Assembly (NCBI GenBank): GCA_963842525.1
Contig: CAWJGT010000001.1
Location: 96,001 to 160,000, forward strand
DNA from: an uncultured Holophagales bacterium
Lineage (GTDB): Bacteria; Acidobacteriota; Thermoanaerobaculia; Multivoradales; UBA5704
DNA length: 64,000 bases
Direction of reading: 5' to 3'
Of the stretch, positions 24,989 through 38,120 are shown in pieces. The notes beneath the pieces are model-generated. The model searched no databases. It worked only from the letters and a program-made list of their open reading frames with translations, and was not told the origin of the DNA. The position numbers were made by a program, and so were the translations under genes. How positions within the stretch are numbered: position 1 is the first letter of the stretch; each line of letters begins with the position of its first letter.

Positions 24989-25020
24989 GTGCAGGGCGGG
25001 AGAGGGGAGAAAGAGGTCTC

Positions 25021-25058
25021 TTGACAGGCTCACTCGTCTGATGCATTCTCATGCGCAT
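25021..25058 (+). promoter_or_regulatory. arg operon promoter with ARG box
   Basis: TTGACA 25021-25026, N17, CATTCT; overlapping TGCAT-tctc-ATGCG resembles the ArgR box TGMAT-N4-ATKCA. Confidence 0.7.
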
Positions 25059-25090
25059 CGTTTTGCGGACGATGAGGACGAAAGACGACG

Positions 25091-25549
25091 ATGCCAGCCG
25101 ACACGGAGAACCGGGACAAGCGCCACCAGGAGATCCTCGAGATCCTCCGGGAGACGCGCGTGGCCAGCCAGGGAGAGCTGGTGGAAATGCTGCACGCACG
25201 CGGGTTCTCGTGCACGCAGTCGAGCGTCAGCCGCGACCTGCGGGACCTGGGCATCGCCCGCATCGCCGGACGCTACGTGGTCCCGGCGCGAAATGACGAC
25301 GCCGACCTGGGTTTCCGCGAAATCATGCACTTTGTGCGCGGCTGCAAGCCCGCCGGGACCAACCTGACCGTCGTCTTCACCTCCGTGGGCGCCGCGCAGT
25401 CGGTCGCCCTCGCCATCGACCGGGCCGCTTGGTCCGAGGTCGTGGGCACCATGGCCGGCGACGACACCATCTTCGTCGCCACGGGCAGCGCCCACGACCA
25501 GCAGCGGTTCATCCAGCGCCTCGATCTTTTCCGGCACGAAGAAAGGTGA
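25091..25549 (+). CDS. argR: arginine repressor
   Basis: SQGELV, TQSSVSRDLRDLG and VGTMAGDDTIF. Confidence 0.95.
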   Translation: MPADTENRDKRHQEILEILRETRVASQGELVEMLHARGFSCTQSSVSRDLRDLGIARIAGRYVVPARNDDADLGFREIMHFVRGCKPAGTNLTVVFTSVGAAQSVALAIDRAAWSEVVGTMAGDDTIFVATGSAHDQQRFIQRLDLFRHEER

Positions 25550-25553
25550 CGCC

Positions 25554-26804
25554 ATGTCCGATCCGATCGTGCTCGCCTTCTCCGGCGGGCTGGACACCTC
25601 TTTCTGCATCCCCTTCCTCGCCGAGACGACCGGCCGGCCCGTGGTCACGGTGACGGTGGATACGGGCGGCCTGGACGCCGCCGCCGCGGCCGACCTGGCG
25701 GCGCGCTCGCGCGCCCTCGGGGCCGTGGACCACCTCCTGGTGGACGGCCGGGCCGCCTTCTTCGACCGGGTGCTCCGGTTCCTGGTCATGGGCAACGTCC
25801 GCCGCGGCCAGGTCTATCCGCTGTGCGTCGGCGCGGAGCGGGTGATCCAGGCGCAGGAGGTGGCGAAGGCCGCCGCCCGCCTCGGCACCCGCACGGTCGC
25901 CCACGGCTGCACGGCCGCGGGCAACGACCAGGTCCGTTTCGAGGTTGCCCTGCGCACGCTCGACCCGGGGCTGGAGGTCCTGGCGCCGGTGCGCGACCGG
26001 CCGCTGCCGCGCGCCGAGGAGGTCGCCTTCCTGGAGGCGCGCGGTCTGCCCGTGCCCTCCTTCGGCGCCGCCTATTCGATCAACCGCGGCCTCTGGGGGG
26101 TGACGATCGGCGGGCGCGAGACCCTGGACACGGTCGAGTCGATCCCCGAGACGGCCTGGGTGCTCACCCGGGACGCCTTCGACCGGCCGCTGCCGCCGGC
26201 GCGCCACACGGTCGGTTTCACCGCGGGGGTGCCGTCGTCCCTGGACGGCGAGGAGCTGGCGCCGGTTGTGCTCATCGAGAAAGCGGAGGCGCTCGCGGCG
26301 CCCTACGGCATCGGCCGCGGCATCCACCTGGGCGAGACCATCCTCGGCATCAAGGGCCGGGTGGCCTTCGAGGCGCCGGCCGCCGAGGTGCTCGTCACCG
26401 CGCACCGCGAGCTCGAAAAGCTGACGCTGACCGGCCGGCAGATCCGGGTCAAGGAGACGGTCGCGGCCGTCTACGGTGACCTGGTCCACGAGGGGCAGCA
26501 CCTGGACCCGGTCTGCCGCGACATCGAAGCGCTTCTCCTCAGCTCGCAGGAGCGGGTGACCGGCGAGGTCCATCTCCTCTTCCGGCCGGGGCAGGTCTTC
26601 GTCGAGGGAGTGCGCTCGCCGTTCTCCCTGGTCGCGGCCACGCGCGGCGTCTACGGCGAGGCGGCCGGCGAGTGGACGGCCGAGGACGCCCGCGGCTTTT
26701 CGCGGATCGCCGCCCTGCCCGGGATGCTGCACGCCCGGATGGATCAGGGCGGACCCGGCGGGTCGGGCAAGAACCAGCCCGTTCCTATCGAGGCGGAGGC
26801 CTGA
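25554..26804 (+). CDS. argG: argininosuccinate synthase
   Basis: LAFSGGLDTS, AHGCTAAGNDQVRFE and GIKGRVAFEAPAA. Confidence 0.93.
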   Translation: MSDPIVLAFSGGLDTSFCIPFLAETTGRPVVTVTVDTGGLDAAAAADLAARSRALGAVDHLLVDGRAAFFDRVLRFLVMGNVRRGQVYPLCVGAERVIQAQEVAKAAARLGTRTVAHGCTAAGNDQVRFEVALRTLDPGLEVLAPVRDRPLPRAEEVAFLEARGLPVPSFGAAYSINRGLWGVTIGGRETLDTVESIPETAWVLTRDAFDRPLPPARHTVGFTAGVPSSLDGEELAPVVLIEKAEALAAPYGIGRGIHLGETILGIKGRVAFEAPAAEVLVTAHRELEKLTLTGRQIRVKETVAAVYGDLVHEGQHLDPVCRDIEALLLSSQERVTGEVHLLFRPGQVFVEGVRSPFSLVAATRGVYGEAAGEWTAEDARGFSRIAALPGMLHARMDQGGPGGSGKNQPVPIEAEA

Positions 26805-26805
26805 G

Positions 26806-27894
26806 ATGAAGACGATCGTCCTGGACAAGATCGCCTCGGTCACCCGTTCCTGCCAGCTCAAGCGGGAGGTGCGAGTGAGCTCCCAGATCCCCTGCGAGGA
26901 GGGGGTGGTGGTCGCGGTGCGCGTGCTCAACGACAAGAGCACCTATAACCAGCTCGAGCTGCCCAGCGGGCGGATGGCCCAGGTCAAGCGCGGAGACATC
27001 GTCGCCGGAGCCCTCGGGCACCGGCACGCCCTGTTCGGCTACGCCGGTCATCTGCCGGAGCGGCTGGCCCCGGGCGACCGCATCCAGCTTCTGAACATGG
27101 GCGGGGTGCTGGGGGTCTTTGATGGCGGCAGCCCGGACCTCGGCCTGCCCTTCGAGTGCGAGGTGCTCGGGGCCATCCTGACCTTTCCCTACCTGGGAGA
27201 GCGGATCGGCGTGGCCGCCCGGATCGGCGATGTCGGCGGCGTACCCCTCGACCCGGCGGCGCCTCTCACCTCGGGCGGCGTGCCGGTGATCGCTCTCGTC
27301 GGCTCCTGCATGAACTGCGGCAAGACCGCCGCGGCCTGCGCCCTGGTCCGCGAGCTGAGCCACGCCGGCCTGACGGTCGACGGCTTCAAGGCCACCGGCG
27401 TGTCGCTGCGCCGCGACGTGCTGGCCATGGAGGACGCCGGGGCGCGCAAGACGGCCCTGTTCACCGACCTCGGCGTGGTCGCGACGAGCGACGCCAACGC
27501 CCCGGCGGTGACCCGGACGCTGCTGACCCGTCTCGCCGCGGGCCGGCCGGACGCCCTCGTGGCCGAGCTCGGCGACGGCCTGCTCGGCGCCTACGGCGTA
27601 GCCGCCATCCTGGACGACCCGGAGATCCGCGCCGCCTTCACCGCCGTGGTGCTCGCGGCCAACGATCCGGTCGCAGCCTGGGGCGGGGTGCGCATCCTGC
27701 GCGAGAGGTTCGGTATCGAGCCGGTAGCGGTGACCGGCCCGGCCACGGACAATCTGGCGGGGACGCGGATCCTGGAGGAGCAGCTCGGGATTCCGGCGAT
27801 CAATGCGCGGACGGACGCTCCACGGCTGGCGGAGCTGGTGCGGGCGCGCCTGGGAGTCGGGATCGACCGGATTGGGGTGGAGGTGGTGGCGTGA
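26806..27894 (+). CDS. DUF1611-like P-loop protein embedded in the arg operon
   Basis: VGSCMNCGKT P-loop, FKATG, FTDLG and ELGDGLLG; translationally coupled to argG and argC. Confidence 0.75.
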   Translation: MKTIVLDKIASVTRSCQLKREVRVSSQIPCEEGVVVAVRVLNDKSTYNQLELPSGRMAQVKRGDIVAGALGHRHALFGYAGHLPERLAPGDRIQLLNMGGVLGVFDGGSPDLGLPFECEVLGAILTFPYLGERIGVAARIGDVGGVPLDPAAPLTSGGVPVIALVGSCMNCGKTAAACALVRELSHAGLTVDGFKATGVSLRRDVLAMEDAGARKTALFTDLGVVATSDANAPAVTRTLLTRLAAGRPDALVAELGDGLLGAYGVAAILDDPEIRAAFTAVVLAANDPVAAWGGVRILRERFGIEPVAVTGPATDNLAGTRILEEQLGIPAINARTDAPRLAELVRARLGVGIDRIGVEVVA

Positions 27895-29117
27895 GGCCTC
27901 ACCCCCTGTCCCCCTCTCCCATCTCCCACCCGCCCTATCCCCGGGAGAGGGGGGACGTTGCTCAGGCGATTCCGGCGAGCCCGGGCTCAGGAGCTCCGCA
28001 TACGTCCCCCCTCTCCCGGCGGGGGGTGGAAGGGAGATGGGAGAGGGGGACAGGGGGTGAGGTCTCCGCCCTTATCCTCGGCGGCTCCGGCTATGTGGCA
28101 GGCGAGCTGCTGCGGCTGCTGGCCGGCCATCCGGTGCTGCGCCCGGTCGCCGTGGTGTCGGAGAGCCAGGCGGGGGAGATGGTGGAATCCGCCTTTCCTC
28201 ATCTCGCCGGCTGCTTTCCAGGGCTGGCGTTCTCCCGTCGGGAAGATCTCGCTGGTGTCTTCGAATCGCTCGCGGGCGAGACAGCAGCCATCTTCTGCGC
28301 GGCTCCCCATGGCGCGGCGGCGGCGCTGCTCGATGGCGTGCTCGCCGAGGCGGAGGGGGCCGGGGTGGAGGCCCGGGCGGTCGACCTGTCGGCCGATTTC
28401 CGGTTCGGGTCGGCGGAGGCTTATACGGCGGTCTATGGCCATCCGCATGGCGCGCCGGAGCGCCTGGCCTCATTCTCCTGCGCGGTGCCCGAGCATGCAG
28501 CGGAGGTTTCGACCCCTCATGTGGGCCACCCGGGGTGCTTCACCACCTCGGTGCTGATGGCGACGGTCCCCTTGCTGCGGCTGGGCCTGGTGGAGCCGCG
28601 GGTCTCGGCCGTGGCGGTGACCGGCAGCACCGGCGCGGGGCGCACGCCGACCGCCACGACCCACCACCCGGCGCGGCGGAGCAACCTTTTTGCGTACAAC
28701 CCGTTGAAGCACCGGCACGGGCCGGAGATGCGGGCGCTCGCGGCGGCTGCTTCGGGGGTGGAGGCGGAGATCTGGTTCGTTCCGCAGGCCGGACCGTTCG
28801 CCCGCGGTATCTATGCCACGGTGCAGGCGCGGCTGGCGGAGCCCCGGTCCGCGGCGGAGGTCCGGGAAGCGCTGGCCTCTTTCTATAAGGATGCGCCGTT
28901 CGTCGATGTCCTGGCCGAGCCGCCGCGCCTCCAGGACGTAGTGGGGACCAACCGCTGCCGCCTGAGCGTCGCGGTGGACGGCGATCATCTGGTCGTCTTC
29001 TCGACGATCGACAACCTGGTCAAGGGAGCCGCCGGGGGCGGCATCCAGTGGATGAACCGGCTCCTCGGGCTGCCCGAGACCGCCGGTCTGACTCAGCCCG
29101 GGCCGGGCTGGCTGTGA
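27891..29117 (+). CDS. argC: N-acylglutamyl-phosphate reductase
   Basis: ILGGSGYVAGELLRLL, VDLSADFR, HPGCFTT, TGSTGAG and IDNLVKGAAG; start uncertain because the first ~57 codons are the palindromic repeat. Confidence 0.9.
   Translation: MRPHPLSPSPISHPPYPRERGDVAQAIPASPGSGAPHTSPLSRRGVEGRWERGTGGEVSALILGGSGYVAGELLRLLAGHPVLRPVAVVSESQAGEMVESAFPHLAGCFPGLAFSRREDLAGVFESLAGETAAIFCAAPHGAAAALLDGVLAEAEGAGVEARAVDLSADFRFGSAEAYTAVYGHPHGAPERLASFSCAVPEHAAEVSTPHVGHPGCFTTSVLMATVPLLRLGLVEPRVSAVAVTGSTGAGRTPTATTHHPARRSNLFAYNPLKHRHGPEMRALAAAASGVEAEIWFVPQAGPFARGIYATVQARLAEPRSAAEVREALASFYKDAPFVDVLAEPPRLQDVVGTNRCRLSVAVDGDHLVVFSTIDNLVKGAAGGGIQWMNRLLGLPETAGLTQPGPGWL
27897..28062. repeat. REP/REPIN-like palindromic element inside the argC 5' end
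   Basis: cctcaccccctgtccccctctcccatctccc ... gggagatgggagagggggacagggggtgagg perfect outer inverted repeat. Confidence 0.88.
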
Positions 29118-29130
29118 GGAGGGGAGAACG

Positions 29131-30319
29131 ATGATGATGGTGGTTTCCGCCGAGAGCGCGCTCGACCCGACCGCCGAAGAGCGGCGCTGGCTGCTGCCGG
29201 TCTATCCGCATGCGCCTTTCGAGCCGGTGAGCGGCGAGGGCGCGCTCCTCCGCACCCGGGACGGCCGGGAGCTGATCGACTTCTATGGCGGCCACGCCGT
29301 GGCCCTGCTGGGCTACGGCCACCCGCGTCTCCTGGCAGCCCTCGCCGAGCAGGCGAAGACTCTCTTCTTCCAGAGCAACGTGGTGCCGCTGGAGGTGCGC
29401 GCCCGTGCCGGGCGGCGGCTCGTCGAGTGGGGACCCGAAGGCCTCTCCCGCGCTTTCCTGGTCAACAGCGGCGCCGAGGCCAATGAGAACGCCCTGCGCC
29501 TCGCCTTCCGGCGCACCGGCCGGCGGCGGGTCGTCGCCATCGAAGGCGCCTTCCATGGCCGGACCGCCGCGGCGGGTGCCCTCACCTGGGGCTCGAAGCG
29601 CTGGTACGGCTTCCCGCAGGCGCCGTTCGACGTGACCTTCGTGCCGCGGGGCGACCTGGACGCTCTCGAGCAGGCCCTCATCGCCGATCGCGGGGCCGCG
29701 GCCCTGATCGTCGAGCCGGTCCAGGGACAGGCGGGGGCCTACGCGCTCGGCGCCGAGTACCTGCAGGCCGCCCGCAAGTTGACCTGGCGGGCCGGCGCCG
29801 TGCTCATCTTCGACGAGGTCCAGTGCGGCATGGGCCGGACCGGTCAGCCCTTTGCGGCCCAGGCGTACGGCGTCACGCCCGATCTCTTGACGACGGCCAA
29901 GGGGCTCGCCGGCGGCTTCCCGGCCGGCGCCGTCCTGGTGACCGACGAGCTGGCGGCGGGGCTTGGCGACGGCGACCTGGGGACGACCTTCGGCGGCGGC
30001 CCCCTGGCCTGCGCCCTGATCGAGGCGGTGATCGGCGCCATCGAGGACGAGGGGCTCCTGCCGCACGTGCGGCGGCTCTCCGCCCGCATCCGCGAGACCT
30101 GCTGCGTGGGGCCGGTGACCGACATCCAGGGCGAGGGCTTCCTCCTCGGCCTGCGCACCGCGCGGCCGGCGAAGGAAATCCACGCCGAGCTGATCGACAA
30201 GGGGATCTTCACCGGCACGAGCGGCGATCCCCACATCGTGCGTCTCCTGCCGCCGCTGGTCCTCGCAGAGAGTCCACGTCGACGCCCTGGCCGCGGCCCT
30301 CCGGGAGATCCGGCCATGA
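29131..30319 (+). CDS. argD: N-acylornithine aminotransferase (class III; frameshift near 30270)
   Basis: NSGAEANE, FHGRT, EPVQG, FDEVQCGMGRTG, AKGLAGG and TTFGG; natural end HVDALAAALREIRP* is in a shifted frame. Confidence 0.9.
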
Positions 30320-31324
30320 AGCGCTTCGTGACCCTGGCGGAGCTCAGCCGCGGCGAGGTGATCGAATTGCTGGCCCTCGCCGACCGGCTCGAGCGGCGGC
30401 CGGATTCGGACGCCCTGGCGGGCAAGGTCCTGGCCCTCCTCTTCTTCAACCCGTCGCTGCGCACCCTCGCCTCGTTCCAGGCCGGGATGGCGCGGCTGGG
30501 CGGCAGCTCGTTCGTCATCTCGCCCGGGCAGGGGAGCTGGCAGCTCGAGACCCGGACCGGCGTGGTCATGGACGGCGCCGCGGCCGAGCACGTCCGCGAG
30601 GCCATCCCCGTCCTCGCCGGCTATGGCGACGCGCTCGGCATCCGCTCCTTTGCCGGCGGGACCGACCTCGCGGCCGACCTGGCCGACGAGACCTTCGCCG
30701 CCATGGCCGCGGTCTGCCCGGTGCCGGTGATCAACCTGGAATCGGCGATCGACCATCCCTGCCAGGCGCTCGCCGACTGGCGGACTATGGACGAGCTGAA
30801 CATCCCCACCGAGAGCGGCCGGTTCGTCCTCTCCTGGGCCTGGCACCCGAAGGCGCTCCCCCTGGCCGTGCCCGCCGCGGCCGTCCACATGGCAGCCCTG
30901 CGCGGGATGGACGTGACCGTGCTCCGGCCCGAGGGGTTCGGCCTGCCGGAGCCGGTGATGGAGCGGGCGCGCCAGGCCGCGGAGCTTTCCGGAGGCTCGG
31001 TCCGCGAGTCCGCCGACCGCCGCTGAGGCCATGCAGGGGGCGCACGTTGTCTATGCCAAGTCGTGGACGGCGCCGGCCCACTACGGCGATCCGCAGGCCG
31101 AGGCAGCGCTGCGGGCCGGCCTGCGGGACTGGTGCGTCGGCGAGGACTGGTTCGCCCCGGCCGCACCCGGCTGCCGGTTCATGCACTGCCTGCCGGTGCG
31201 GCGCAACGTGGTGGTCCGCGACGAGGTGCTCGACGGACCGCGCAGCGTGGTGATCCGGGAGGCCCACAACCGGATGTGGGTCCAGATGGCGGTCCTCCAT
31301 CGGCTTTTGCGAGGTGAATCATGA
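30316..31324 (+). CDS. argF: N-acetyl/N-succinyl-ornithine carbamoyltransferase ArgF' (frameshift near 31020)
   Basis: FFNPSLRT, NLESAIDHPCQ, WAWHPKALP and MHCLPVRRN: signatures of AOTCase/SOTCase rather than classical OTCase. Confidence 0.9.
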
Positions 31325-32277
31325 AAGACGTCGGCCAGCGGACCGCCGAGATGGCGGCTCTGAAGCATGCGACCCCCTACATCCGCCTGTTCAAGGGGAA
31401 GACCTTCGTGGTCAAGGTCGGCGGCGAGGCGGTGGAGACCGAGGCCGCGATCCGCGGACTCCTGGAACAGGTGCACACCCTCCACCAGGTCGGCATCCGC
31501 GTGGTCCTGGTGCACGGCGGCGGCACGGAGTCGACCCGCCTGGCCCGCGCCCTCGGGGCCGAGCCGCGCTTCGTCGAAGGCCGGCGGGTGACCGACGAAG
31601 CGGCCCTCCAGGTAGCGGCCATGGTCTTGAACGGCGCGGTCAACACCCGCATCCTGGCGGTCTCCCGTGCCCTCGGCCTGCCGGCCCTGGGCATCTCCGG
31701 GATCGACGCCGGCCTGATCCAGGCGCGCCGCCGGCCGCCGGTGCAGGTGAACGGCGCCACGGTCGACTACGGCTTCGTCGGCGACGTCGTCTCCGTCTCC
31801 CCGGGGGTGGTCACGACCCTGCTCGACGCCGGCATGGTGCCGGTGGTGAGCCCGCTCTGCGCGGACGACGCCGGCACCGTCCTCAACATCAATGCGGACA
31901 CGATCGCCTCGGCCCTCGCCGTCGGCCTGCGGGCCGAGAAGCTGATCCTGATGACCGGCGCGCCGGGCATCCTCGAACGGCCGGGCGATCCGGGCACGCT
32001 CGTCTCCTACACCGACCTCGCCGGCCTGCGCCGGCTGCGCGACCAGGGATGCCTCGTCAAGGGGATGCTTCCCAAGGCGAGCGCCATCGAGTCCGCGGTC
32101 CTGGGCGGCGTCCGGCGGGTCCACATCCTCGGGGCGGACATGCCCGACGGCCTGCTGACCGAGGTCTTCACCAACGAGGGCGTCGGGACGCTGGTGGTCG
32201 AGGACGTCGGCGCCCTGTCGCCCGCCGAGCAGTGGATGGAAGCAACGGCCTCTCCGGTCCTGGAGACCGCGCCATGA
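31321..32277 (+). CDS. argB: N-acylglutamate kinase
   Basis: VVKVGG, VHGGG, GRRVTD, GFVGDV, NINAD and GMLPK. Confidence 0.93.
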   Translation: MKDVGQRTAEMAALKHATPYIRLFKGKTFVVKVGGEAVETEAAIRGLLEQVHTLHQVGIRVVLVHGGGTESTRLARALGAEPRFVEGRRVTDEAALQVAAMVLNGAVNTRILAVSRALGLPALGISGIDAGLIQARRRPPVQVNGATVDYGFVGDVVSVSPGVVTTLLDAGMVPVVSPLCADDAGTVLNINADTIASALAVGLRAEKLILMTGAPGILERPGDPGTLVSYTDLAGLRRLRDQGCLVKGMLPKASAIESAVLGGVRRVHILGADMPDGLLTEVFTNEGVGTLVVEDVGALSPAEQWMEATASPVLETAP

Positions 32278-33384
32278 TGCTGCCGCCGCGCGAGATCCTG
32301 ACCCTCCATCGCGATATCGTCGCGATCCCCTCCGTGTCCGGGAGCGAGGCGGAGCTGGCCGGCTTCCTGGAGGACCGGCTCCGCCGCCGGGGCGCCGCAC
32401 CGGTGCGGGTCGGCGAGAGCCTGCTGGCCCTGCATGGCGAGGGTCCGGTGCTCCTCCTCGACACCCACCTCGACACCGTGCCGCCGGTCCCGGGCTGGAC
32501 GCGCGACCCCTGGCAGGTCGAGGAGGCGGACGGCCGCATCTACGGGCCTCGGCGCGAACGACGCCAAGGCCTCGGTCGCAGCCATGGTCGCCGCCTTCCT
32601 CGCCTTCCTGGAGGTGCGGCTGCCCTTCACCCTCGCCCTGGCCCTGGTCGAGGGGGAGGAGACGAAGGGGACCGGCACCCAGGCGGTCCTCGCCGAGCTG
32701 GCGCGCCGCGGCCTCCCGCTGGAGGCGGCCGTGATCGGCGAGCCCACCGGCCTCGACCTGGCCGTGGCGCAGAAGGGCCTGATGGTTCTGGAGCTGGTGA
32801 CGCGAGGCGAAGCCTGCCATGCCGCGAACGCCGCAGCCCTCGGCGCCACCAACGCGGTGCGGCTGCTTGCCCGCGACCTGGTGTCCCTGGAAGCGATCGA
32901 CTTCGGCCCGCCCCACGAGCAGCTCGGCCCCATCACCCTGGAGCCGACGCAGCTCCGGGCGGGGACCGCGCGCAACATCGTGCCGGGCGAGGCCACGGCC
33001 GTGCTGGACGTCCGCACCACACCGTCCCTCTCCCGGGAAGAGATCGCCCGGCGCATCCGGGAAAGGGTCCGGGGCGAGGTCCGGGTGCTCTCCGACCGTC
33101 TTCTGCCCAAGGCCACGCCGGAAGACGCGCCGCTCATCGTCGCCGCCCGCCGCGCCCGTCCGCACGCCCGCCTTTTCGGCTCGGCGACCCTGTCGGACAT
33201 GGCCCTCCTGAACGGCACCCCCGCGGTCAAGTGCGGTCCGGGGCAGAGCGACCGCTCCCACACGCCGGACGAGTACGTCCTCCACGAGGAGATCCTGGAC
33301 GGCGCCCGCTTCTACACCCGGCTGATCGGTTCCTACGCGGAGCTGAGAGTCGAGCAGGAGCACCTGCTGGAGGTCCGGGGGTGA
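32274..33384 (+). CDS. argE: M20 deacylase (N-acylcitrulline/ornithine deacylase; frameshift near 32545)
   Basis: PSVSGSE, DTHLDTV, GLGANDAK, EGEE, IGEPT and SHTPDE. Confidence 0.88.
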
Positions 33385-34566
33385 CCCGCCTCTGGGACAA
33401 GGGAGAGCCGCTCGATGAGACGGGTCCTCCGCTACACCGCCGGCGAGGATCACGTCCTGGACGCCCGGCTCGTCCCCTACGACGTCCGGGCCTCGATCGC
33501 CCACGCCGAGATGCTCCAAGGTGCCAACCTGCTCTCCGCCGAGGACCTGACCGCGATCCGGCAAGGTCTGGAAGCCCTCGCCGCCGGACACGCTGCCGGG
33601 GAGTGGCGCATCGACCTCGCGGACGAGGACGTCCACACCGCCCTGGAGACCCGCCTGACCGCAAAGATCGGCGAAGCCGGAGCCCGCCTCCACCTCGGCC
33701 GCTCGCGCAACGACCAGGTCCTCGCCGCCCTCCGCCTCTACCTGCGCGACGAGATCGAAGCTCTCCGCCAGGGAGCCCTGGAAGTGGCGGCTGCCCTCGA
33801 TGCCCTGGCCGAACGGGAGAAGGACACGCTCCTCCCCGGCTACACCCACATGCAGCCGGCCATGCCCAGCTCCGTGCCGTTGTGGGCGGGAGGCTTCGCC
33901 GCCGAGCTGCGCGACAACGCCGAAGGCCTCGCCGCCGTCCGCCGCCGCATCGACAAAAACCCGCTTGGCTCGGCCGCCGGCTACGGCGTCCCCCTGCTGC
34001 CCATCGACCGCGAATCCACCCGGGCAAGCCTGGGCTTCGCCGAAGTCCAAGAGCCGGTGACCGCCGTCCAGCTCTCGCGAGGCAAGGCGGAGGCCCAAGT
34101 CCTCTTCGAAACCGCCCTCCTGATGCAGGATCTAGGACGCCTCGCCGCCGACCTCGTCCTCTTTTCAATGCAGGAGCTCGGCTTCGTGAGCCTGCCGCCG
34201 GAGATGACCACCGGCTCCTCGATCATGCCGCAGAAGCGCAACCCGGACGTCTTCGAGCTGGTCCGCGGCCGCACCGTCACAGCCCAGGCCTGCCTCCTGG
34301 AAGTCCTGGCGATCACCGCCAAGCTTCCCTCCGGCTACCACCGCGACCTCCAGCTCCTGAAAGCCCCCCTCTTCCGAGGCCTCGACCTCGCCCGCGACAC
34401 CCTCGCGATCCTGTCCGCCGCCCTGCCCGGCATCCGCTTCCACCCCGAGCGCATCCATCTCGACCCCGGCCTCTACGCTGCCGAAGAGGCTTACCGCTTG
34501 GTTTTGGAGGAAGGTATCCCCTTCCGCGAGGCGTACCGGCGGGTGGGGGAGCGGTACAACGCGTAG
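33381..34566 (+). CDS. argH: argininosuccinate lyase (frameshift near 33420)
   Basis: RLWDKG, EDVHT, HLGRSRNDQ, PGYTH and TGSSIMPQKRNPD. Confidence 0.93.
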
Positions 34567-35242: not shown

Positions 35243-36462
35243 GTGCGCCCGTGAGCGCACACGTTCAGAGAGGTGAAAGTCCTCTTCAGGCATACGCTCT
35301 CCGGCCTGTAACCGAAGGTAACTGCGTCGCCCAAAGCGAGGTGGAGAGCAACCGGAGGTGAGAGACCAGTCCGCAGGAGACGAAATCGATTCGGCCTTGT
35401 GACCCCGACGAGCCTGCAAGCCACTGGCGAAGTCTGGACCCTCAAGGGAGACCCATCGAGCTGAGGGGTAGCGTGCGAAAGCGGCGATGGGGGGGCGTAG
35501 GGTGATTGGATGCAGAATGGTCTCAAAGGACGTGTGACGTGAAGCGGGGAGACCTCGGTCGGGCAGGAGACTTGCCGAGGAGTCAGAGTCCTCATAGGAG
35601 CTGAGAAGCGCCGTAACGGGCGTGGAGCAAAGGGGGACAGGGAGGTGGATGCGTGACGACTGGACAAGCGGAAAGCAACCGCGCGTCAGTGCCTGTAAGG
35701 GCTAAACAAGCCGGAGAAGTCCGGGGCCGGTGGCCCTGGGTGGAACCGCATGTCTGGACGGATCGCATGTTGACGGCCCTCGAAGCTGGGGTCCAAGGAG
35801 GCCAATGGTTCAGTCTGATCGACAAGGTCTATGACTCGCGCAACCTGGACTCTTCCTACCAGCGGGTCAGGCGGAACCAGGGAAGCGCTGGGGTTGACCA
35901 CGTGACGGTCGCGCAGTTCAGCGCCCACCTCGGCAAGAACCTGGAGAACCTGGCGGCTAGTCTGAAAGACGGCAGTTATCGTCCGCAGGCGATTCGCCGG
36001 GTGTGGATACCCAAGCCGGGTAGCTCCGAGGAGCGCCCTCTGGGGATTCCGACGGTTCAAGACCGGGTGGTGCAAGGAGCGCTGCGCAATGTCTTGGAAC
36101 CGATCTTCGAACGGGAGTTTGCAGCCCAGAGCTACGGATTCCGTCCGGGGAGAAGTACCAAGGCTGCGCTGCGTCGCGTCTCGGAACTGCTGGAGGCCGG
36201 CTATACCCATGTGGTGGACGCCGACCTGCGCAGCTATTACGACACGATCCCTCGCCAGGGTTTGATGGCGAGAATCGAAGCGAAGGTATCGGACGGCCGG
36301 GTCTTGGACCTGGTGCGTGCCTTTCTCGACCAGGAAGTGATGGTGGGTCTGGAGCACTGGACTCCTGAGGAGGGAACTCCACAAGGAGCGGTGATCAGTC
36401 CCCTGCTGTCGAATATCTACCTGGACCCTCTCGACCATCAAATGGCCGAACAAGGTTATGAG

Positions 36463-38120
36463 GTATCTGTTTACCGCCCTAGTGCCGCCTTCCCCGAGCG
36501 GTGGCACGTCCGCAAGGGCTTGAAGTTCTCTTCTCGGCATGGTCTAATGTCTTTCAGGCATGCCGACTTACGAGGAACTCCTTCAAGAGAACTCTGAGCT
36601 TCGCCAAGACAACGGTGAGCTTCGCCAGCGGGTGGAGGAGCAGGAGCGCCAGATTGCGCACCTGAAGCGCCGAATCGTCGATCTGGAGAAACTTGTCGAG
36701 GAGCTACGGCGCCGGGGCAAACGCCAGGCTGCCCCCTTCTCGAAGGGAGATCCGAGCGAGGATCCCAAGTCTCCAGGGCGCAAAGCCGGGGATCAATATG
36801 GTCAGCAAGCGACTCGAGCTGTGCCCGATCACGTCGACGAAACCATCGTGGTGGAGTGCCCGCTGTATTGTGAGCACTGTGGGGGTCAGGTCATTCCGCA
36901 GGGCGAAGCTCGCCAGTATCAGACCGATCTGCCGCCGATTCGGCCGGTGACGACGGAGTTCATCCTCCATTATGGGAAGTGCTCGGCATGTGGCCGGGAA
37001 GCTGTGGGGCGTCACCCGCGCCAGACTTCCCAGGCGTTCCGGGTCGGCAACGTGCAACTCGGTCCAAACGTGTTGGGGCTCGCCGCCTGGCTCAACAAGG
37101 TCGGAGGCTTGAGCTACGGCAAGATCGCCGCGTTGCTGAAGGAGCTGGCTGGACTGTCTGTGTCGCGCTCGGCCCTGTGCCGCGCGCTGCTTCGCATGAG
37201 TAAGAAGCTGGAGCCCTTGTACGAGGAGCTGAAGGCGAAGATCCGGAGCTCTCCTGTGGTGTACCCGGACGAGACGGGCTGGCGGGAGGGGGGCTATAGC
37301 GTGTGGTTGTGGGTGTTCACCAATCGCAGCGAGACGGTCTACAGCATCCAGCCGGGTCGTGGCTATGCCGAGGCCTCTGAGGTCCTGGGGGAGGGCTTTG
37401 TCGGCGTGCTGGTGGCTGATGGTTGGGCTCCCTATCAGAAATTTGAAGAAGCGACTCATCAGACCTGTCTGGCGCATCTGTTGCGCCGTTGCGAGGAGCT
37501 GCTGGAGAAGGCGACAGGGGGTGCGGTGCGCTTTCCTCGGGCGGTGAAAGAGATCCTGCAGGCCGCCTTGGAGGCGCGAAGATCAGCGGGACGCGGGCAA
37601 GCTCAGCGGCGAGGCGCTGGAGAAGGTCAAGCAGGACTTGGAGCTCCAGATGGAAAGGCGTCTGTCGGGGAAGTTCACGAACCCCGACAACCAGCGTCTG
37701 GCTCAGCATTTGATACGTCACCAGGAGCAGCTGTTTGTCTTCCTGGAACGCACGGATGTGGAGGCGACCAATTGGCCGGCCGAACAAGGGATTCGCCCGG
37801 CGGTCATCAACCGCAAGACATCTGGGGGAAATCGGACGGCCGAGGGGTCCCAGGCGCAAGCGGTCTTGATGAGTGCCCTGCGCACATTTCAGCAACACCA
37901 AGTCGGGACACTCGAGATCTTGCCCCAGCTTCTGCGCAGCCCCCAGCTACCGAAGCTTGAGGCAATACTTCCTGCGTCACAGCCACCGTAACAGTTCTCG
38001 CCACGAGTTATCCGTGGCTCCAGGTCGGTAGCCGCTCGCCCTCGTCAGGTCGCCTGGCCAGCGCGGACGTGTGTCCAGGGAAAACCTTCCCCAAAAGTGC
38101 CGCTGACGGTAAACAGATAC
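36463..38120 (+). mobile_element. IS66-family element (single-ORF, ISBst12-like), 1658 bp
   Basis: 14-bp terminal inverted repeats GTATCTGTTTACCG / CGGTAAACAGATAC; 8-bp target duplication GTTATGAG (36455-36462 and 38121-38128). Confidence 0.95.
36560..37991 (+). CDS. IS66 DDE transposase (frameshift near 37580)
   Basis: Coiled N-terminus, CEHCG/CSACG zinc finger, VYPDETGW, VLVADGW, QTCLAHLLR and TNWPAEQGIR. Confidence 0.9.

Follow-up and report, generated by a model that had tools for sequence, protein, structure and literature searches.

The first step of arginine synthesis has long been a gap in genome-based pathway reconstructions of many bacteria. The canonical N-acetylglutamate synthases (NAGS), which include ArgA with its kinase-like and GNAT domains, ArgJ, the ArgA/B proteins with a NAT domain and the short GNAT enzymes, share the predicted pathway place of the protein described here and have an unrelated fold; the N-succinylglutamate synthase of Bacteroides is of the GNAT type. 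A closer counterpart is ACG33_RS14135 of Steroidobacter, for which the accessible text of GapMind 2026 (PLoS Genet e1012372) predicts the role that we discuss below. The grounds given there are the arg-cluster context, the mutual exclusion with a P. aeruginosa-type ArgA, residue 92 of the neighboring ArgF' and a Foldseek similarity to 7XRJ (E 1.4e-7, rmsd 5.6 Å), the structure of DgcN, which the same text names "D-glutamate acetyltransferase". Here, we analyzed a 64,000-nucleotide stretch (the window) of an uncultured Holophagales bacterium of the Acidobacteriota (assembly GCA_963842525.1, contig CAWJGT010000001.1, positions 96,001 to 160,000), in which an unassigned gene, called X here (protein P0001; 26806 to 27894, + strand), lies inside an arginine operon. 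A sequence-only reading of the stretch had proposed that X is an alternative N-acetyl- or N-succinyl-L-glutamate synthase. Synthesis of N-succinyl-L-glutamate is the best-supported reading of its role, and the arguments for it, all of them indirect, are the gene context, the co-occurrence with a particular transcarbamylase (ArgF'), the exclusion of ArgJ and a specificity residue in ArgF'.

Gene X is an intact, stop-free open reading frame (ORF) of 362 codons with the motifs VGSCMNCGKT at residues 165 to 174 and ELGDG at residues 254 to 258, and translation bore out the earlier description of it in these terms. The operon runs argR-argG-X-argC-argD-argF'-argB-argE-argH, all on the + strand. According to Pfam and the translation of the neighbors, it holds every arginine step but the first, with neither a GNAT gene nor argJ present, as had been read from the sequence. 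The further statement that X is tightly coupled between argG and argC holds for the argG side, where the spacer is 1 nucleotide; on the argC side the spacer measures 167 nucleotides, is filled by a palindromic repeat element and is the sole loose junction of the operon. Downstream, ATGA overlaps join argD to argF', argF' to argB and argB to argE, and a GTGA overlap joins argE to argH.

The sequence-only reading had left the rest of the genome to be searched for argA and argJ, and neither was found elsewhere by PF01960 or TIGR01890. The genome (9.95 Mb in 34 contigs, 96.4% complete) was searched alongside 14 control genomes. The ArgJ family PF01960 had no match genome-wide and matched in 10 of the 14 controls. 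The model of the two-domain ArgA, TIGR01890, matched solely the operon's own argB (positions 4 to 279), scoring 146.8 bits where the cut-off is 202.85; among the controls, this cut-off was exceeded in one genome, that of E. coli. For the NAT domain PF04768, the controls were silent in a first scan; on rerunning it with the genome G104 as the positive control, G104 matched at 3e-38 and our genome had no match. NF005921, which we take to be the mycobacterial short NAGS, also had no match genome-wide, with matches in 11 of the 14 controls, all under the cut-off. Within X itself, Pfam found no GNAT, NAT or ArgJ domain even at E<=10. Since the operon encodes all the other steps and the genome lacks ArgJ, a two-domain ArgA, a NAT domain and a NAGS of the NF005921 type, the first step is open to X.

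The place of X in arginine clusters is conserved well beyond this genome. The locus survey, run with a 12-sequence alignment of X and with the window's Arg proteins as tblastn queries, found a relative encoded in 594 of 600 matched stretches, of which the best 80 were kept. These comprise 24 Acidobacteriota-type loci with 70 to 83% identity in X and 56 others with 61 to 67%, the latter being 55 from Steroidobacteraceae/Gammaproteobacteria (some labelled Pseudomonadota) and one metagenome-assembled genome (MAG) labelled Planctomycetota (L041). Homologues in arg operons, which the sequence-only reading had suggested looking for, were the rule: argC follows X directly on the same strand in all 80 loci, and argG lies upstream of X in 70. 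Of the 10 loci without argG, 2 are at a contig end and 8 have an X-argC-argB arrangement. The other genes are found in 67 loci (argR, upstream of argG), 65 (argB), 60 (argF'), 59 (argD) and 56 (argH); argE is found in 20, all of the Acidobacteriota type plus L041. Furthermore, orthologues at merely 33 to 35% identity lay in X-argC-argD-argB clusters in the three genomes examined (G084, G151 and G108), all without ArgF'.

Across the phylum, we sampled 201 genomes that were at least 90% complete. The X profile matched 60 of them, 52 at 369 bits or more, 7 with a paralogue only (190 to 222 bits) and 1 with a fragment. ArgJ was present in 51 genomes, ArgF' of the window type in 45, and a true ArgA (TIGR01890 over the cut-off) in a single genome, which is without X. 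High-scoring X and ArgJ were never found together, compared with 13.2 genomes expected if they were independent; the only overlaps, in G037 and G145, involve a paralogue alone. High-scoring X is encoded in 41 of the 45 ArgF' genomes, and one further genome has a fragment of X beside argF'. Conversely, 11 of the 52 genomes with high-scoring X lack the window-type ArgF'. Three genomes (G023, G048 and G145) are flagged as unpublished, and without them the counts are 50 genomes with high-scoring X and 40 with ArgF' as well.

Genome G104 has ArgF' and no X, and its cluster reads argF'-argG-ORF-M20-[AA_kinase+NAT]-argD-argC. The fusion of AA_kinase and NAT (PF04768) is a 438-residue protein (L083:6068-7384) and the sole NAT-type enzyme in the four genomes tested. 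Judged by its domains, it has the known architecture of an N-acylglutamate synthase/kinase; it appears to displace X and would thus point to the synthase step. Another genome, G052 (L093:400-7100), matches the window proteins in part (argG residues 117 to 393, X 1 to 70, argD 1 to 74) while its other genes look complete, which may reflect either decay of the operon or a collapsed assembly. In five genomes of the same order or class that are 98 to 100% complete (G005, G115, G127, G166 and G137), neither ArgC nor ArgF' of the window found a match, and X and ArgJ were absent too. They were considered as a guide to what replaces X and set aside as uninformative, because the window-protein queries located neither argF' nor argC; these bacteria may be auxotrophic for arginine or rely on very different enzymes.

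The acyl group is indicated by ArgF'. The window's ArgF' aligns without gaps with the N-acetylornithine carbamoyltransferase of X. campestris, and its best match in the Protein Data Bank (PDB) is the E92A mutant of that enzyme, 3l02. The PDB wild type (Glu) and the Ala, Ser and Val mutants at one column mark position 92, where the window's ArgF' has Ala. Among the 60 loci with a readable ArgF', this position is Ala in 58, Ser in 2 and Glu in none. The accessible text of GapMind 2026 quotes Shi et al. 2007 to the effect that such residues at position 92 switch the specificity to N-succinylornithine. In E. coli, by comparison, the later enzymes of the pathway work on acetylated intermediates. 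Residue 92 would therefore point to N-succinyl intermediates, although over its whole length the window's ArgF' is closer to the X. campestris N-acetylornithine enzyme (E about 1e-46) than to the B. fragilis-type chains 2fg6/1js1 (E about 1e-31).

For the X protein itself, Pfam gave nothing at E<=1e-3 and at E<=10 solely MobB (17.4 bits) and DUF1611_C (13.7 bits); NCBIfam at E<=1 gave two weak P-loop families only. The family is nevertheless widespread, with 1,465 representatives at 50% identity in addition to the 52 of 201 genomes in the phylum sample. Of 8,000 scored candidates, 6,661 matched at E<=1e-3, and the named entries among the best 120 homologues are all "hypothetical protein". Residues that do not vary among 52 diverse members include G172, K173, K195, G198, G212, G223 and G311, and T174, D204, D221, E254 and D287 are kept in at least 90%. 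The AlphaFold2 model (pLDDT 94.9, pTM 0.91) has two domains, an all-beta N-terminal domain (residues 1 to about 130) and an alpha/beta P-loop domain resembling BioD and DUF1611 (residues about 155 to 350). Folded alone, the N-terminal domain was again predicted as all-beta (pLDDT 84.8). VIA-align found no chain at Z>=5 for it among 48,161 (best Z 3.5, root mean square deviation [rmsd] 3.5, 62 residues aligned), and the best Foldseek hit had an E value of 0.46; the modelled domain thus appears to be without a convincing PDB relative, a search outcome that is no proof of a new fold. Longer proteins containing X were also considered as Rosetta-stone evidence and rejected: 12 are all singletons joined to argG, argC or argD and are probably artefacts, and one fusion of X with an AA_kinase domain (P0200), a single N-truncated metagenomic ORF with a linker of about 40 residues, was not counted.

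The label of DUF1611/DgcN-like protein given to X by the sequence-only reading stands for the fold of the P-loop domain and fails at the level of the family. In VIA-align, the top three neighbors of X are DUF1611 proteins, namely, 2g0t (TM0796; Z 17.4, rmsd 2.8, 181 residues aligned), 2obn (Ava_3511; Z 17.2, rmsd 2.8, 185 aligned) and DgcN itself, 7xrj (Z 16.1, rmsd 3.0, 185 aligned), followed by the BioD structure 1a82 (Z 15.9, rmsd 3.2, 179 aligned) and the CTP synthase 7dpt (Z 15.8, rmsd 3.2, 192 aligned). Foldseek ranked BioD first, 2obn 12th and 7xrj 49th (E 2.1e-4, TM 0.35). At the sequence level, X reaches 13.7 bits (E 0.041) with PF07755 (DUF1611_C) over residues 160 to 198 only, below the gathering score of 25 bits, and no match to PF07755 exists anywhere in the window's genome. 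PF17396, the Rossmann-like DUF1611_N, is present in 11 of 11 genuine DUF1611 proteins and has no Pfam match in X, of which hhalign aligns only residues 147 to 342. The X family profile did not list 7xrj, 2obn or 2g0t among PDB sequences at E<=10; the profiles of X and of its paralogues reached only P-loop stretches of BioD, MobB and FtsY there, and none of the DUF1611 structures. The ESM Atlas clusters nearest to X carry automatic "DUF1611" names and have no Pfam family in common. Genuine DUF1611 genes occur alongside X in G085 and G097. Consequently, X is at best a distant relative of the DUF1611 C-terminal domain and not a member of the family.

Profile comparisons were made with hhalign from 11 DUF1611 sequences, all with PF07755 and PF17396, and from 5 BioD sequences. 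X matched DUF1611 with a probability of 91.1% (E 1.1e-6, 181 columns, C-terminal domain only) and BioD with 85.3% (E 5.9e-6, 172 columns), and DUF1611 matched BioD with 94.8% (E 5.4e-8, 186 columns), so that the three are about equidistant members of one P-loop group. With DgcN/DUF1611 (7xrj, 2obn, 2g0t), X shares the similar C-terminal P-loop domain, in which E254 falls on that family's invariant Glu, and for either protein the target would be the amino group of glutamate. In contrast, the N-terminal domain is all-beta in X and Rossmann-like in DUF1611, the DUF1611 P-loop reads GTD[CS]AxGKRT with Gly at the position of BioD Lys37 where X has GKT and Lys, and the substrates of X would be L-glutamate and a succinyl group rather than D-glutamate and an acetyl group. 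With BioD, X shares the length of the P-loop and its GKT (GSCMNCGKT in X, GTDTxVGKT in BioD), and K173/T174, K195 and E254 align with invariant BioD residues, K195 with Lys37, as three independent alignments (phmmer, hmmsearch and hhalign) agree, and E254 with Glu109 of EGxGG. BioD Lys37 and the aligned Glu serve as a catalytic residue or Mg ligand. Unlike X, BioD is a single domain of about 225 residues without the beta N-terminal domain, which adds about 130 to 150 residues to X, and TIGR00347 (BioD) has no match in the genome at E<=1e-20, X included.

Taken together, X probably makes N-acylglutamate, the missing first step of arginine synthesis. We infer the reaction, the acyl donor and the domain roles as follows. 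X would N-succinylate L-glutamate and so open a linear N-succinylated arginine pathway, whose first product would then be processed by ArgB, ArgC, ArgD, ArgF' (as N-succinylornithine transcarbamylase) and ArgE. Succinyl-CoA would be the donor. The BioD/DUF1611-like P-loop domain would hold the nucleotide part of coenzyme A (CoA), and the family-specific all-beta domain would help to bind glutamate. Transfer from succinyl-CoA is favored because of the analogy with DgcN, the one characterized structural neighbor, and because known N-succinyltransferases of amino-acid pathways use this donor. For this reading as a whole, with succinyl-CoA as the donor of the N-succinylation, we hold the chances to be about even. 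A different chemistry on the same substrates deserves serious, if lesser, consideration: X could be an ATP-dependent succinate:L-glutamate ligase (N-succinylglutamate synthetase) in the manner of dethiobiotin synthetase, CTP synthase and CobB/CobQ. In BioD-type enzymes, amide or ureido bonds arise via phosphorylated carboxylates or carbamates, and in X the P-loop domain would correspondingly phosphorylate succinate, the alpha-amino group of glutamate would attack the resulting acyl (succinyl) phosphate, and the all-beta domain would present L-glutamate, which might make X, again with perhaps one chance in a few, a new class of carboxylate-amine ligase. The BioD length of the P-loop with Thr straight after Lys, where DUF1611 has GKRT, favors the ligase, as do the invariant K195 on Lys37, where DUF1611 has Gly, E254 on the invariant Glu109, and the rank of BioD as first Foldseek match and, in VIA-align, no more than about 1.5 Z below the DUF1611 proteins. 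It is opposed by DgcN, the sole characterized enzyme of the three top structural neighbors, being an acetyltransferase by its PDB title, by the habitual use of succinyl-CoA among N-succinyltransferases, and by the fact that the conserved P-loop could equally hold the diphosphate of CoA. Given the BioD-like catalytic residues, succinate plus ATP is as relevant to an assay as succinyl-CoA. If the ligase chemistry were true, many soil Acidobacteriota and Steroidobacteraceae would begin to make arginine with a CoA-independent N-succinylglutamate synthetase.

Other roles for X are less likely. An arginine-linked function apart from the synthase step, either an ArgJ-like recycling of the acyl group from N-succinylcitrulline or N-succinylornithine to glutamate or that of an NTPase accessory or regulatory factor, seems improbable to us. 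The Steroidobacteraceae-type clusters lack argE, and the accessible text of GapMind 2026 reports the same absence for S. denitrificans, so both missing steps would be accounted for by a recycling enzyme; the metallochaperone NTPases HypB and UreG, moreover, are among the fold neighbors. Yet the Acidobacteriota operons hold both X and argE, so X is not simply a replacement of ArgE, a chaperone of ArgE would not be retained in clusters lacking argE, literature searches found no precedent for transacylation on this fold, and the synthase step is what the NAT-kinase fusion of G104, standing in place of X, points to. Still less probable is a synthesis of N-acetyl-L-glutamate from acetyl-CoA, with the pathway running on acetylated intermediates. 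DgcN is named an N-acetyltransferase, the overall closest relative of the window's ArgF' is the N-acetylornithine enzyme, and the 11 genomes with high-scoring X and without this ArgF' need not use succinyl groups, but the specificity position of ArgF' beside X is Ala or Ser and never Glu in 60 of 60 cases and the best PDB match carries the E92A mutation. As for X being a hitch-hiker unrelated to arginine while a conventional acetyltransferase elsewhere does the first step, small GNAT enzymes do lie beyond the reach of the family searches used and the low-scoring paralogues are found outside arg clusters (5 of 5 examined); we regard it as very improbable in view of the linkage to argC in 80 of 80 loci across phyla, persisting at 33 to 35% identity, and of the strong co-occurrence with ArgF'.

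Several observations weigh against N-succinyl-L-glutamate synthesis by X. A small GNAT enzyme on its own, encoded at another place in the 10-Mb genome and serving as NAGS, could have escaped the family searches. Window-type ArgF' and ArgJ also overlap in no genome, and because X and ArgF' share one operon, the exclusion of ArgJ is not independent evidence for X specifically; related genomes, furthermore, make the counts non-independent. In two ArgF' genomes, X is absent and no substitute is visible: in G171, argC-argD-argF'-argB is flanked by Mla and glycolysis genes with none within 20 kb, and in G174 the contig is cut at argC. Structurally, the tie to DgcN is weak, since Foldseek places DgcN behind BioD, HypB and FtsY, the P-loop domain of X is nearly as close to BioD as to DUF1611, and the N-terminal domains of X and DUF1611 are unrelated. 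Four of the arg genes have frame breaks in this assembly, which could mean that this bacterium is losing the operon. Finally, the role of the X family rests on prediction, and Table 1 of GapMind 2026, in its accessible text, gives "no" for experimental confirmation.

The sequence-only reading had allowed that comparative genomics might already have proposed similar proteins, which proved correct: X as the first arginine enzyme is an idea already in print and not new. The sole non-arg ORF of the 55 Steroidobacteraceae/Gammaproteobacteria arg clusters is a full-length homologue of X at 61 to 67% identity, and S. denitrificans is a member of Steroidobacteraceae; no named S. denitrificans record is among our best 80 loci or, with a Steroidobacteraceae orthologue as the query, among its best 120 homologues. 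The accessible text of GapMind 2026 reports that S. denitrificans DSM 18526 grows in defined medium. From sequence and context, we infer that X is orthologous to ACG33_RS14135. Like X, ACG33_RS14135 is described as a hypothetical protein in an argR/G/C/D/F'/B/H cluster, in a genome without an ArgA homologue and with a remote fold match to 7XRJ. Its neighboring ArgF' has A/P/S/V at position 92, a pattern that the accessible text of GapMind 2026 gives for 90% of 70 proteins and that the Ala of the window's ArgF' follows. It differs in that the Steroidobacter cluster lacks the M20-type argE, which the Acidobacteriota operon of the window has. Literature searches found nothing joining DUF1611 and arginine, and no work besides GapMind 2026 naming ACG33_RS14135. 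What our analysis adds are the exclusion of ArgJ, the counts of co-occurrence with ArgF', the displacement of X by a kinase-NAT fusion, the unmatched N-terminal domain and the BioD-like catalytic constellation, of which the last two are not raised in the accessible text of that study. The X family would be a third, unrelated solution beside the GNAT/NAT-type ArgA and ArgJ; if this is confirmed, false calls of auxotrophy would be corrected for abundant soil lineages and a new enzyme architecture would be added.

The remaining genes of the operon, all on the + strand, were assigned as follows. The 152-residue argR (25091 to 25549) was named from its context and the earlier reading, on the basis of an ORF and its translation. 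It is followed by argG (25554 to 26804), an argininosuccinate synthase of 416 residues with PF00764 and PF20979. Beyond X and the repeat element are argC (about 28062 to 29117; PF01118 and PF22698, start taken from the three-frame view), the class-III aminotransferase argD (29131 to about 30319; PF00202), the acyl-ornithine transcarbamylase argF' (30316 to 31324; PDB matches, with Ala at the E92 equivalent) and the N-acylglutamate kinase argB (31321 to 32277; 318 residues, from its translation and the match of its kinase part to TIGR01890). The M20-type deacylase argE (32274 to 33384) was assigned from its translation, its orthologous position and Pfam on the related L083 ORF, and the argininosuccinate lyase argH (about 33381 to 34566) from its translation and orthologue alignment, with the name resting on context and sequence reading.

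Of these genes, argR, argG, X, argC and argB are frame-intact, and argD, argF', argE and argH each have one extra base compared with the intact orthologues of L003 and L006, giving a single frame switch near 30275, 31025, 32545 and 33395 to 33420, respectively. The intact argE orthologue of L003 (372 residues), for instance, aligns to the window's argE in two frames. Because the protein around the breaks is 72 to 84% identical to the orthologues and has no in-frame stops, we read the four breaks as consensus or assembly errors, which they probably are, and not as decay; the best share of words in public sequencing runs for the stretch was 0.06, so that no public run contains it.

The element between X and argC (27895 to 28061) is a palindromic repeat of 165 nucleotides resembling a miniature inverted-repeat transposable element or a repetitive extragenic palindrome. 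Throughout the genome, 80 matches to it were found at 74 to 93% identity, a count in which both strands of the palindrome are included at the same places, and it folds as a near-perfect hairpin (free energy -146.7 kcal/mol, z -11.3). The same spacer measures just about 25 to 55 nucleotides in close relatives, and the element might influence transcription or mRNA stability inside the operon.

Upstream of argR, the promoter/operator region (25018 to 25090, + strand) contains TTGACA followed by ATGCA-type repeats. The operon had been described as ArgR-boxed. No ARG box was found in it at up to 3 mismatches to the E. coli consensus, whereas the alignment of 15 argR upstream regions gave the consensus CTTGACT..CATGCA..ATGCG.TATCAT.TGCAT, a conserved, operator-like ATGCA-repeat region that overlaps the argR promoter in the aligned loci. 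The promoter-operator layout of TTGACT, CATGCA, ATGCG, TATCAT and TGCAT is common across phyla (window 25018 to 25090; L002-L044) and, as a conserved sequence pattern, is a candidate ArgR operator unlike the E. coli ARG box. The gene order of the whole operon is also shared by Acidobacteriota and Steroidobacteraceae/Gammaproteobacteria (window 25091 to 34566; L026-L081), with protein identities of 61 to 74% across phyla (X 61 to 67%, argG 64 to 74%, argH 61 to 72%), and the Planctomycetota-labelled MAG L041 has the Acidobacteriota-type operon including argE. Together, the shared order and identity suggest transfer of the operon between phyla.

The paralogue subfamily of X has the same two-domain layout with the motifs GTSMxAGKT, AKLTGTG and E.ADG, and one of its members, L088, barely clears the PF07755 threshold (26.2 bits against 25). 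Five paralogue loci were examined (L088:9402-10415, L089:9740-10972, L090:9756-11024, L091:9582-10640 and L092:8014-9105), and none has an arg gene within about 10 kb. The neighbors of the paralogues include YheC/D ATP-grasp proteins, M20, M28 and M36 peptidases, an ABC exporter and PGA_cap, and the substrates of the paralogues may be different amino acids or peptides. Just downstream of the arg operon, the window encodes a reverse transcriptase ORF (35653 to 36597; RVT_1), possibly of a group II intron, and an IS66-family transposase (36560 to 37960; DDE_Tnp_IS66 and zf-IS66).

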